Shown here one piece after another: positions 1-3,000 of a stretch of 64,000 bases of DNA. The stretch comes from Escherichia coli. Lineage in GTDB: Bacteria; Pseudomonadota; Gammaproteobacteria; Enterobacterales; Enterobacteriaceae. The stretch is taken from the NCBI RefSeq assembly GCF_030013205.1, contig NZ_CP122648.1; one strand, given 5' to 3'. Made by a program: the position numbers. How positions within the stretch are numbered: position 1 is the first letter of the stretch; every line of letters begins with the position of its first letter.

Positions 1-3000
1 TTGTTTGTGAGTACGACCATCCTGCACACACATCAGGCGAATTTCGTTTGCCCATGCTGTCCAGTTCGGTTCTTTGGGACGAACCACCTCGCCGTCACAT
101 TCGGCGGCCTGCTCGTACAGGGCGATGATTTTTTTCCAGAGCCACTGTGCGCAGGTCAAATCATCCTGCGTTCCCCACTGGCGCTTTTTAGGGCTGAATA
201 CAACCGCATCAGGATGGCGAGTTAAAAACTCCTGTTCAGCCGTTTGCGTGTCCGGTTGCGAAGCGTCCGGACGAGAAGAGGTTTTATTCTCTGTAGTAAT
301 CTCTGTTGTATTCTCTGTAAGATCATTGGGCCATTTTGACCCGATGACAGCGTGTCGTTTTGAACCAATGGATCGTGTCATTTTGCGCCCATCCATCAGG
401 TCACTTTGACCCGATGGAGAAGTGCATTTTGACCTGATGGATTCGTTCACTTTGACCTCTTCTAAAAGCTCACTTTCATAGTTGATCGTGTAGAAGTTGG
501 TCATGTCACGCTTCGATTTATTGAGTTGCTCGCGACGCAAAACCCCAAGTGATTTCAGGCTTGCAAATGTGCGTTTCAGAGTGGACTCTGACCAGAACGG
601 AAACTGCTCCAGCCACTGTTCTGTCGTGTTATAAACCCAGCGAATTCCGCCATGCTCAGTGCCTGAATTCGTTTCATTCAGCCAGTAATGAAGCTGCTGC
701 AACACAATTGCCTCATTCAGACCAATACGGCATGCAAGATCACGATTTATCACAATGGGCTGGGATGTCATTAACAGGCTCATGACCGACCTCTATTTCC
801 CTGAATTTACGACGAAACTGTTCGAGCGGACTGAAGCATTCATGTTCATAGCCTTCACGGAGGTAGATAACCCGTTGTGTTTCCGGCTCCCAACGAATGA
901 CTCTGACGGGCACTCCGTAGTGATCTTTGAACCAGCGGTTAACTTGTCGCAAAGGACTGTCTCCTTCTGCCGGTTGAAATCACCCACAGCCCACTCTGCA
1001 AAGCTGTGGGTTACAATTTCCCTGTCACCTGGTACATTCACTGCATAGCAATACTCCACCTTCGCTTTTCCACCCGGTACAGGAAGCGCAATCAGTTGCG
1101 AGCGACGGTAGTGTGTTGTTAAACTGTTCATGCGTTAGTTTCTCCACAACCAGAAGCAATCGACGCCACGACGCCCGGAGCTGCACACTCGCGGGCGTTA
1201 CTCTTTTCCGGCGCACAAAAAACACGAAATAACAGTGTTAAATGCTCCTGCCACTTCGCCATTACTTGGTAGCTGTTCTCTTCGATTTGCTCACGCTCAG
1301 CCTGGTCAATAACTCCATCAGCAGTTGCCTTGCGTAAGTACTGGGAATGCTTGCCAATCCATTCTATTGACTCCATCAGCCGCTGATTAATGTCACCATT
1401 GTCAATGTCATCAATGACCACCAGCGGCACAAACACCCCATTACTACGACGGGCTATTGCATCTGTTACATGCCTGGTACCACTGGCATCCTGTAAAACC
1501 ATGGCCCACTCAAGTGGAAAAATTTGATCCCCACCGCTACGCAGTCTGTTATGCAATTGATCTTTTGCTGGGGTGATATCATCAGATTTATACAAACCAA
1601 GAATTTCTGCTGCTTCCTCATAGCCATGAGGTAAATCAGCAATCGTTCTTCGTATTGCTGCCACCAGCCATGCTGGTTGTTTATCAACTTTCCATTCAGG
1701 TTCTTTACCCACGGTTAATTCCTCATTTCTGTGGTGTTTTTATGCCGCAGCACTGTTAGTCTTTTGATATAAAGACACGTCAACTTTCAGTTTCCCGTTA
1801 GTAATTTTTTCTAACTGGTACGCTCGGCCTTCAGGAATAATCTCAGGCCACTCTGAAACAGACGGATGCTTAATACCTAGGGCTTCGGCGGTTTTACAAA
1901 CTCCGCCGAAATAATTAATCACGTCGGATTTCCGCATTTCTGTCTCCCGTTAAATTACGTCAAGCAGGAATGTAGGATATCCAACATGCCAATGTCAAGA
2001 ATCCTACATTGGCATGTGGTAGGATTGCCTACATGATGAACATGAGTGATCGTATTCGCCAAAGGCGAAAAGAACTGAACCTGACACAACAAGCACTGGC
2101 TGATTTGACTGGTGTGAACCGTGTCACGGTTACTGGATGGGAAAAGGACGACTACCAACCAAATGGAGCCAACCTTCAAGCCCTAGCCAACGCACTTAAA
2201 TGCGATCCTCTGTGGCTTGTTAGCGGAAAAGGCTCGCCTGAACCAAAGATAAATCTAAAACCTGAAATATTCGCAGTTAAAAAAGTCCCCCTCATCTCGT
2301 GGGTTCAGGCGGGTTCATGGACAATGACGGAGCCTGGTGTCAGGAAAGAAGATGCTGAAGAGTGGGTTTATACTACCGCCCTTGTATCAGAAATGGCATT
2401 TGCACTACGGGTCCGTGGTGATTCAATGACCAATCCCCTCGGCTCACCATCGATACCAGAAGGTTCTATCGTTATCGTAGAGCCAGATATTATTGATACA
2501 GAGTGTATTAACGGAAAAATCGTTGTTGCCCATATCAATGGTGGGCAAGAAGCGACACTCAAAAAATTTGTTGAGGACTGGCCGAACAGGTATCTCGTCC
2601 CACTAAATCCTAACTATAAAACTATTGAATGCGGTGAGAACTGCAGAATAGTTGGTCTTGTCAAACAAGTAATAATGGATTTTTGACACATCTTCCTCAC
2701 TATCGCAAAACCGGGGTATCCCCGGTTTTTTTATGAGCCTATCTTTTTATGTAGGATAACCAACATAAACTCTTGACACCTACATGTTGGATATCCTACA
2801 TTTGTTTTTAGAGTTGTGGTGAATGCGCAGGCTGATGCGCGAAAGACATTGCAGCTATTGCGGAAAAGAGCTGTTCGGCGGGGCAATTAAACGCCCGTGA
2901 GAGTCTGAAATAACCGCAAGCCGGAGATCAGCACCGGTCACCACAACAGCCACTGCTTTGGCGGTACCAGTTTGTACACTTGCTTCCGGCTGGTACCGCT

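Follow-up and report, generated by a model that had tools for sequence, protein, structure and literature searches.

We have analysed a stretch of 64,000 nucleotides from Escherichia coli (assembly GCF_030013205.1, contig NZ_CP122648.1), hereafter the window, and in particular a phage immunity region near its beginning, in which the repressor gene cI is flanked by a right operator region (OR) and a left operator region (OL). The cI gene (2033..2686, + strand, in agreement with the RefSeq coding sequence) encodes 217 amino acids, in which Pfam recognised HTH_3 at residues 7-61 (E 1.1e-15) and Peptidase_S24 at residues 85-209 (E 3.6e-25). Divergent from it, across a control region of 95 bp, lies cro (1740..1937, - strand, 65 amino acids), a member of the P22_Cro family (PF14549, E 7.6e-22). 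The operon of the right promoter (PR) continues 3' of cro with a cII-like regulator gene (1128..1712, - strand; PF06892, Phage_CP76, E 1.3e-6), which RefSeq labels 'YmfL family putative regulatory protein' in a 100% identical locus, L001. On its other side, cI is followed by an intrinsic terminator (2707..2732, + strand; CCGGGG-TAT-CCCCGG stem and T7), the hairpin of which is a perfect 10-nt inverted repeat (2707-2716 and 2720-2729) preceding the T run, and then by a second control region (2749-2802) that holds OL and the left promoter (PL). The sole gene between OR and OL is cI. Beyond PL come an untranslated leader of 335 nt and the genes yfdP-yfdQ-yfdR, and no N-like open reading frame (N-type antiterminator) was found between 2803 and yfdP. 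A scan of OR, OL and their flanks against Rfam (positions 1-6000, E up to 1) gave nothing beyond a Termite-leu match that overlay the cI terminator and fell below threshold. Very probably, this region is the switch between lysis and lysogeny (immunity switch) of a lambdoid E. coli prophage associated with dusA, following the immC plan of phages P22 and 21 but having a DNA-binding specificity of its own.

The initial annotation had placed 16-bp operators on both sides of cI, at 1971-1986, 2750-2765 and 2785-2800, the last being the exact reverse complement of the first, and these coordinates proved exact. The 16-mer TGTAGGATATCCAACA at 1971-1986 recurs as a perfect reverse complement at 2785-2800 and as a copy with one mismatch at 2750-2765. 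When up to three mismatches were allowed, the 64 kb gave six strand-matches, every one of them at these three places, against 0.36 expected, and none of 100 shuffles gave six. Two weaker sites lie between the first of these and cI, one with a single good half-site (core 1993-2008, TGTCAAGAATCCTACA) and the other reaching the cI start (core 2018-2033, GGTAGGATTGCCTACA). The bare 8-mer half-site showed no enrichment over the window (25 occurrences, 34 expected), indicating that the signal sits in the dyads and their clustering and that the half-site by itself is unsuited as a search word.

A repeat finder aligned the sites as 18-mers, and in this format the consensus is the dyad ATGT(A/T)GG-ATAT-CC(A/T)ACAT. 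We built a position-weight matrix from the half-sites of 32 strong sites in eight other lineages, leaving the window out; among these 64 aligned half-sites G3, T4 and G7 were invariant, and the consensus read A-T-G-T-(A/T)-G-G-A-T with an A/T-rich centre. At 10 bits or more, this out-of-lineage matrix found exactly five sites in the window: OR1 (1970-1987, ATGTAGGATATCCAACAT, an 18-bp dyad with an ATAT centre, 29.7 bits), OR2 (1992-2009, ATGTCAAGAATCCTACAT, with one consensus arm, 10.8 bits), OR3 (2017-2034, TGGTAGGATTGCCTACAT, overlapping an AGGA word and the cI start codon, 22.9 bits), OL2 (2749-2766, ATGTAGGATAACCAACAT, 26.6 bits) and OL1 (2784-2801, ATGTTGGATATCCTACAT, the exact reverse complement of OR1, 29.7 bits). 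In shuffled windows, sites reaching 10 bits numbered 1.0 on average, and none scored above 19.7. Four sites, all but OR2, stand far above chance. From centre to centre, OR1 and OR2 are 22 bp apart, OR2 and OR3 25 bp, and OL2 and OL1 35 bp. The arrangement described earlier, with three OR sites between divergent cro and cI and, downstream of cI, an inverted operator identical to OR1 together with a second site, is upheld, with OR2 and OR3 being weaker and all the sites being refined to 18-bp dyads.

Promoters were sought by a consensus scan and scored as matches out of 12 hexamer positions. PR was placed at 1969..1998 on the - strand (-35 TTGACA at 1998..1993, an 18-nt spacer and -10 TACATT at 1974..1969; 10/12) and PL at 2773..2802 on the + strand (-35 TTGACA at 2773-2778, an 18-nt spacer and -10 TACATT at 2797-2802; 10/12). 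OR1 and OL1 fill the space between the hexamers of PR and PL, respectively, their outer arm, CCTACAT with the T that follows, forms the -10, and the -35 of PR is the left arm of OR2. The arms 1969-2000 and 2771-2802, each of 32 nt, are 88% complementary. A single promoter-operator module of 32 nt is thus present twice, in opposite orientations, as PR and as PL, which explains why OR1 and OL1 are perfect reverse complements.

The start codon of cI closes OR3 (CCTAC-ATG, 2033), and a Shine-Dalgarno-like AGGA (2021-2024) stands 8 nt upstream. The only + strand candidate for the repressor maintenance promoter (PRM), the position of which is uncertain, lies at 2009..2037 (TTGGCA at 2009-2014, 17 nt, CATGAT at 2032-2037; 9/12), with its -35 abutting OR2 as in lambda. 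With the geometry of lambda, transcription from it would start near 2042, past the conserved ATG of 2033. In many lineages a second in-frame ATG occurs two to three codons into cI (MMNM, MKNM, MSM, MKM; it is missing from lineage L129), and this would allow a lambda-like leaderless PRM transcript. Two leaderless arrangements were considered, one with a -10 TACATG at 2030-2035 and a start at the ATG at 2042, the other with a -10 TAGGAT at 2020-2025 and a start at 2033, and neither fits every lineage.

Conservation was followed in a phylogenetic footprint of 12 CI lineages, the window included, with CI identities of 49-100%, among them mEp390 (61%) and L129 (49%). The persistence of the operators in relatives with the same repressor, on which the initial annotation had staked its reading, was found in these 12 lineages, at the same positions. 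OR1 is unchanged or carries at most three changes in all 12. OR3 is nearly invariant, in mEp390 as elsewhere, and is always fused to the cI ATG; considering that this most invariant of the sites also holds the AGGA, constraints beyond repressor binding are likely to act on it. OR2 scored above threshold, 22 bp from OR1, in six lineages, and homologous sequence is visible at that place in the others; OR2 and OR3 are 25-26 bp apart in the six with a scored OR2, and OR1 and OR3 are 47-48 bp apart in the other six. The distance from OL2 to OL1 is 35 bp in the 10 lineages with both sites within the extracted flank and 33 bp in L129, and is not measurable in L117. Just before OL2, a hairpin and a T run of differing sequence are present in nine of the 12 lineages (eight besides the window). 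The distance from OR1 to OL1 is 814 bp in the window and 776-815 bp in the relatives. No alignment across lineages was possible for the cro leader, for the sequence of the terminator or for the DNA beyond PL.

We also scanned viral contigs with CI and with the operator alone. The CI-based scan returned 80 loci with CI identities of 76-100%, and the scan with the operator (ATGTWGGATATCCWACAT), the motif search across phages that had been proposed at the outset, likewise returned 80 loci. A CI relative adjoins the operator in 76 of these 80 (45 at 99% identity or more and 31 at 49-92%). Among the remaining loci, one ends at the contig edge and shows the Cro gene only, and three are lone perfect palindromes, apparently within coding sequence.

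Comparison of CI with the Protein Data Bank retrieved full-length lambda CI (E 7e-25) and the N-terminal domain (NTD) of the P22 C2 repressor (1ADR, E 3.9e-14; 2R1J and 3JXB, E 5.7e-14). Residues 85-210 align with the C-terminal domain (CTD) of lambda CI, its oligomerising domain (E about 1e-22). In a phmmer alignment, the motifs WVQAGSW, GDSM and TLKKF face HVQAGMF, GNSM and TFKKL of lambda CI, which correspond to the cleavage site and the catalytic motifs; we take the lambda residues concerned to be A111-G112, S149 and K192. In the DNA-binding domain, residues could be numbered after P22 by anchoring on E44 and N46 as named for P22 C2 (PMC4267663). In this numbering, CI differs from the phage 21 and P22 repressors by S31N, N32R, A34T, I35V, S36T and Q37G and keeps Q21, V33, W38, E39 and N46, the counterpart of Asn46 lying in the motif QPNGAN.

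The putative half-site co-varies with the predicted recognition helices of CI and Cro across subfamilies. Wherever the arm ATGT(A/T)GG is used, the CI helix reads GVNRVTVTGWE, with a single V-to-L change as the one exception, while the rest of CI falls to 49% identity. Phage 21 (imm21) combines the arm ATTTAAG with the helix GVSNVAISQWE, and locus L005, with 41% CI identity, combines AACTAAG with GVSDVAVGYWE. On the Cro side, the helix ALGIKHPSVS(E/G)W occurs in most of the lineages sharing the operator, with the variants ISHASVSGW in mEp390 and INHSSVSGW in L144; elsewhere it is ALGISDAAVSQW (ISDAAVSQW) in imm21 and FFGITTEAVYQW in L005.

The closest known systems are those of phages 21 and P22. 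The P22 repressor binds six rotationally symmetric 18-bp sites, making contact at positions 2-7 and 12-17, with N46 helping in the indirect readout of the central 4 bp; A/T-rich centres bind best, and OL1 is bound most tightly (PMC4267663). In the curated record of phage 21, the OR spacings are 22.5 and 25.5 bp, OL1 and OL2 are 35 bp apart, and OL3 lies 29 bp further on. The switch in the window shares with these phages a CI NTD homologous to that of P22 C2 (49-52% NTD identity to repressors of the 21/P22 type by tblastn), a Cro of the P22_Cro family, and 18-bp dyads in which 7-bp arms surround an A/T-rich centre of 4 bp, ATAT or ATAA in the best sites, along with Asn46. It also shares O1 operators set between the PR and PL hexamers, a cI start that abuts OR3, and a terminator directly 3' of cI; with phage 21 in particular it shares OR spacings of 22 and 25 bp and the 35 bp between OL1 and OL2. 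Based on the common 18-bp format, the ATAT/ATAA centres, the Asn residue and all three spacings, the switch follows the P22/21 plan. On the other hand, its half-site is ATGT(A/T)GG rather than ATTTAAG, and its recognition helix reads NRVTVTG where those of 21 and P22 read SNVAISQ (P22 positions 31-37); accordingly, a different specificity, and with it heteroimmunity, is expected. Further differences are that there are two OL sites without OL3, that the cII-like gene is of the YmfL/CP76 type, and that PL is followed by the 335-nt structured leader and yfdPQR and not by an N gene with nutL. At the place that OL3 takes in phage 21, no site was found in any of the 12 lineages, the window included, where the reason is that the cI terminator occupies this position. 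A side observation concerns the phage 21 repressor itself: in the record of Lambda h434 imm21 (OM418627.1, locus L003), the imm21 cI at 1486-2136 carries an in-frame stop in its NTD (...NLLA-stop-AKAL...), and owing to this stop the depositors annotated a shortened coding sequence.

The initial annotation had spoken of a lambda-like OL/OR arrangement. The lambdoid layout holds, in that divergent cI and cro meet at a tripartite OR, PL and OL lie downstream of cI and are co-oriented with it, PR and PL are related modules, and the CTD of CI has the VQAG, G-S-M and KK motifs of lambda CI. The likeness to lambda itself goes no further: the CI NTD is closer to that of P22 C2, the operators are not of the lambda 17-bp type and differ in sequence, and there are two OL sites instead of three and no N, which makes phage 21/P22, with its 18-bp sites and spacings of 22, 25 and 35 bp, the closer model. 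In lambda, OR and OL are about 2.4 kb apart; in the window, where rexAB is missing between cI and OL, the distance is shorter, at about 0.8 kb. Judged by its sequence, the switch belongs to the P22/21 type, as a member that should be heteroimmune and that has a lambda-like CTD predicted to cleave itself.

Relatives are also found among phages that have been sequenced but for whose switches we found no characterisation. The CI of mEp390 is 61% identical and has an identical recognition helix; its OR3 18-mer is also identical, and its OR1, OL1 and OL2 vary around the same consensus and keep the spacings. The Yersinia phages YeP1-3 show 74% identity in the CI NTD. These phages differ from the window in small arm variations (TAGTAGG, AAGTAAG, ATGTAAG), in the CTD, in the cro flank and in the genes 3' of PL.

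Several points weigh against reading the region as an immunity switch of this kind. The functions of CI and of its operators are deduced wholly from homology and conservation. OR2 is at chance by sequence, about one match of its score (10.8 bits) being found per shuffled window. There are five operators here and six in P22/21. The 35 bp between OL1 and OL2 amounts to 3.3 turns and does not match the helical phase of the 22-bp spacing at OR; cooperativity between adjacent dimers in the style of lambda is therefore not obvious at OL. Finally, the -35 of the candidate PRM sits in a non-conserved patch, and the start predicted from it falls past the conserved cI ATG.

If the P22/21-type switch operates as its homologues do, dimers of CI would bind the 18-bp dyads formed by ATGT(A/T)GG, a 4-bp A/T-rich centre and CC(A/T)ACAT. 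By occupying OR1 and the weak OR2, probably cooperatively, CI would cover the -10 and -35 of PR and shut off cro, the cII-like gene and replication; at the other end, CI on OL1, between the PL hexamers, and on OL2, 35 bp upstream, would shut off the early-left operon yfdP-yfdQ-yfdR. OR3, occupied by CI or by Cro, may limit the expression of cI through its overlap with the ribosome-binding site and the start codon, and Cro, as a member of the P22_Cro family, is expected at the same sites as CI. Induction is expected to proceed by RecA-stimulated self-cleavage at the Ala-Gly site, carried out by the Ser/Lys S24 domain. Applying the P22 operator rules, we infer an order of affinity in which OR1 and OL1 (ATAT) would be equal and would exceed OL2 (ATAA), followed by OR3, with good arms and an ATTG centre, and then by OR2, with one arm. 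One phage with this module, the Shiga toxin 1 (Stx1) phage Lys8385Vzw, was induced by 0.5 ug/mL mitomycin C and plaque-purified; its authors list CI, Cro, CII, CIII and N as absent (PMC7946995), indicating that the switch had previously gone unrecognised there.

We consider it possible, but rather unlikely, that CI multimers at OL1-OL2 and OR1-OR2 also loop out the intervening 0.8 kb in the manner of the lambda octamer, reinforcing repression and letting OR3 lower PRM. Such looping, which the initial annotation had thought the arrangement could support, would be favoured by strong paired sites at both ends, with OR1 and OL1 identical, by a CTD that aligns with the oligomerising domain of lambda CI, and by a loop that is expected to be short, cI being the lone gene within it. 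However, OL3 is missing, the 35-bp spacing of OL1-OL2 is unlike the 22 bp at OR, and the OR-OL distance is not conserved in phase, measuring 776, 808, 811, 814 and 815 bp among lineages. In addition, the searched literature gave no evidence that repressors of the P22/21 type loop.

The region could also be regarded as the decayed remnant of a cryptic prophage, with sites that are relics devoid of current function. In agreement with this, yfdP, the first gene of the PL operon (window 3144-3505), is annotated as frameshifted in a 100% identical RefSeq locus, and the prophage end near a dusA fragment shows no integrase on that side. Nevertheless, cI, cro and the cII-like gene are all intact open reading frames, more than 60 independent viral contigs share a CI of about 100% identity, and the module is widespread. 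The window locus is 100% identical to that of E. coli ETEC4079, and at a query coverage of at least 80% the module was found in 134 of 5,426 complete E. coli genomes, with 99.6-100% identity among the top 20 matches listed. It is also carried by three Stx2c phages, by Lys8385Vzw (99.3%) and by two other deposited phages, and relatives occur in YeP1-3 and in further viral contigs. One of 283 first codon positions and one of 283 second positions segregate, and this near absence of non-synonymous diversity indicates purifying selection. Since a phage carrying the module is moreover inducible and forms plaques (PMC7946995), we regard decay as very unlikely.

Least credible of all is the proposal that the CCTACAT(T) words are kept mainly as -10 elements (TACATT) and cI translation signals, the dyad symmetry being incidental: it is true that the outer arm of OR1 and OL1 is itself the -10 of PR and PL and that OR3, with its AGGA and cI ATG, is the most invariant site even in its non-contacted centre. 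Against this, OL2 lies outside any promoter and yet is a dyad of 26.6 bits, kept 35 bp from OL1 in 10 of 12 lineages; conservation extends to the promoter-distal arms (TGTTGG); an adjoining CI or Cro is correctly predicted by the 18-mer for 77 of 80 contigs; the half-site and the helix-turn-helix of CI and Cro co-vary; and the homologous sites of P22 are proven operators (PMC4267663).

Returning to the immunity switch of the P22/21 plan, the operator word and the recognition helix together appear to define an immunity group not described in the searched literature. A string search of the literature with 12-mers of the operator (TGTAGGATATCC and GGATATCCTACA) gave zero matches, and the matches to 9-mers were unrelated primers. 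The group is common, being present in 134 complete E. coli genomes and in several Stx1- and Stx2c-converting phages. With the operators and the repressor known, superinfection immunity between Stx phages would become predictable, and induction reporters could be designed. The group also offers what looks like a natural specificity swap relative to the structurally solved P22 C2-operator complex, in which N32R, Q37G and S36T in the helix stand opposite T3-to-G and A6-to-G in the operator arm. Biologically, this is a standard lambdoid switch, and the only feature that might teach something new is the hypervariability of short spacers beside the operators.

We compared these spacers among the window and the 62 viral loci heading the CI-identity ranking (L006-L067), all with about 100% CI identity, which make up 38 haplotypes over 1,133 bp. 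Three patches vary among the 63 loci: that from OR1 to the PR -35 (1988-1991) with 10 alleles, that on the cI side of OR2, which overlaps the putative PRM -35 (2010-2015), with eight, and that from the PL -35 to OL1 (2779-2783) with eight. Of the 15 spacer positions, 11 segregate, with a minimum of 16 mutations and a mean nucleotide diversity (pi) of 0.186. The 136 four-fold degenerate sites of cI and cro hold 11 segregating sites and at least 12 mutations (pi 0.0079), the 91 operator sites hold 13 and 13 (pi 0.0084), and the 152 sites of other non-coding DNA hold 27 and 29 (pi 0.0135). The difference between spacers and four-fold sites is significant (Fisher p = 4e-8), and the spacers change about 12-fold, by minimum mutations per site, to 23-fold, by pi, faster than synonymous sites. 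Five spacer combinations occur on one identical background of 1,118 bp, represented by 12 loci.

Natural lambda-immunity phages served as one control. Their OR spacers have a pi of 0.05-0.07 against 0.087 at four-fold sites and are roughly neutral, indicating that spacer hypervariability is not universal. Multiple alleles of the PL spacers occur in the imm21/P22 population as well, one 4-nt spacer having 10; this is on a far more diverse background, and the control is therefore only partly informative, the lambda-immunity control being the cleaner one. Gene conversion between the inverted PR and PL modules was rejected as the source of the variation, as the spacer alleles of PR and PL are unshared. 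We suggest, tentatively and with more doubt than confidence, that the spacers, at about -26 to -30 of PR and PL and at the putative PRM -35, are fast-evolving tuning knobs of the switch. If so, they would imply recurrent selection on promoter strength and on the set-point of induction, or else a local mutational hotspot beside repressor-occupied DNA.

Two further observations belong to these patches. The window allele of the PL patch adds an extra CCTACAT half-site (2779-2785) abutting OL1, which was considered as a third PL site and rejected: it falls in the hypervariable patch and is missing from most of the CI-identical relatives, which carry CTCACAT, CTCGCAT and others in its place. A perfect 12-nt inverted repeat (1984-1995 and 2006-2017; ACATGCCAATGT and ACATTGGCATGT) brackets OR2, and is probably incidental because it is tied to the spacer alleles of the window and is unconserved in relatives.

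The untranslated PL leader (2809..3143, + strand, 335 nt), which precedes yfdP-yfdQ-yfdR, is highly structured, with a predicted folding energy of -140 kcal/mol (z = -4.85). It contains a terminator-like hairpin (2961-2970 and 2990-2999, followed by TCTTTTT), a boxA-like word (2997-3010, CGCTCTTTTTACAA) and a long hairpin with 25-nt arms (3007-3031 and 3071-3095), and the Rfam scan of positions 1-6000 (E up to 1) gave no family for it. Phages mEp460, cdtI and SfV and Stx2 phages, whose immunity regions are different, carry the leader at about 99% identity, and it is itself a mosaic, joined near 2813, 2939 and 2959. In Salmonella ST64B and in Klebsiella phages, a copy of the long hairpin with about 84% identity precedes yfdP-like genes; five pairs of the predicted fold show compensatory change, and two of these pairs belong to the long stem. 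The leader could be an antitermination or processing element. Its first 135 nt or so (2813-2948) were also found, at 98.5% identity, in RCS47 (near 'plp'), IME207 and vB_EcoM-813R1, which are P1-like and large plasmid-prophage records carrying this segment apart from the rest of the leader.

Elsewhere in the prophage, five tandem 23-nt iterons with the core CATTTTGACCCGATG lie at 324-439, inside an open reading frame for a replication gene on the - strand. They resemble a lambda-type origin embedded in an O-like gene. A pair of 15-nt direct repeats is located at 281-319. On the opposite side, the prophage apparently ends beside a 105-bp fragment of dusA, the gene for a tRNA-dihydrouridine synthase (window ~7900-9850, L001 15227-17114), where a PrtN-like gene, two small hypothetical genes and an opposite-strand gene with a Panacea domain were seen and no integrase was present. 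Lys8385Vzw, which carries the same immunity module, has been reported to integrate in dusA.

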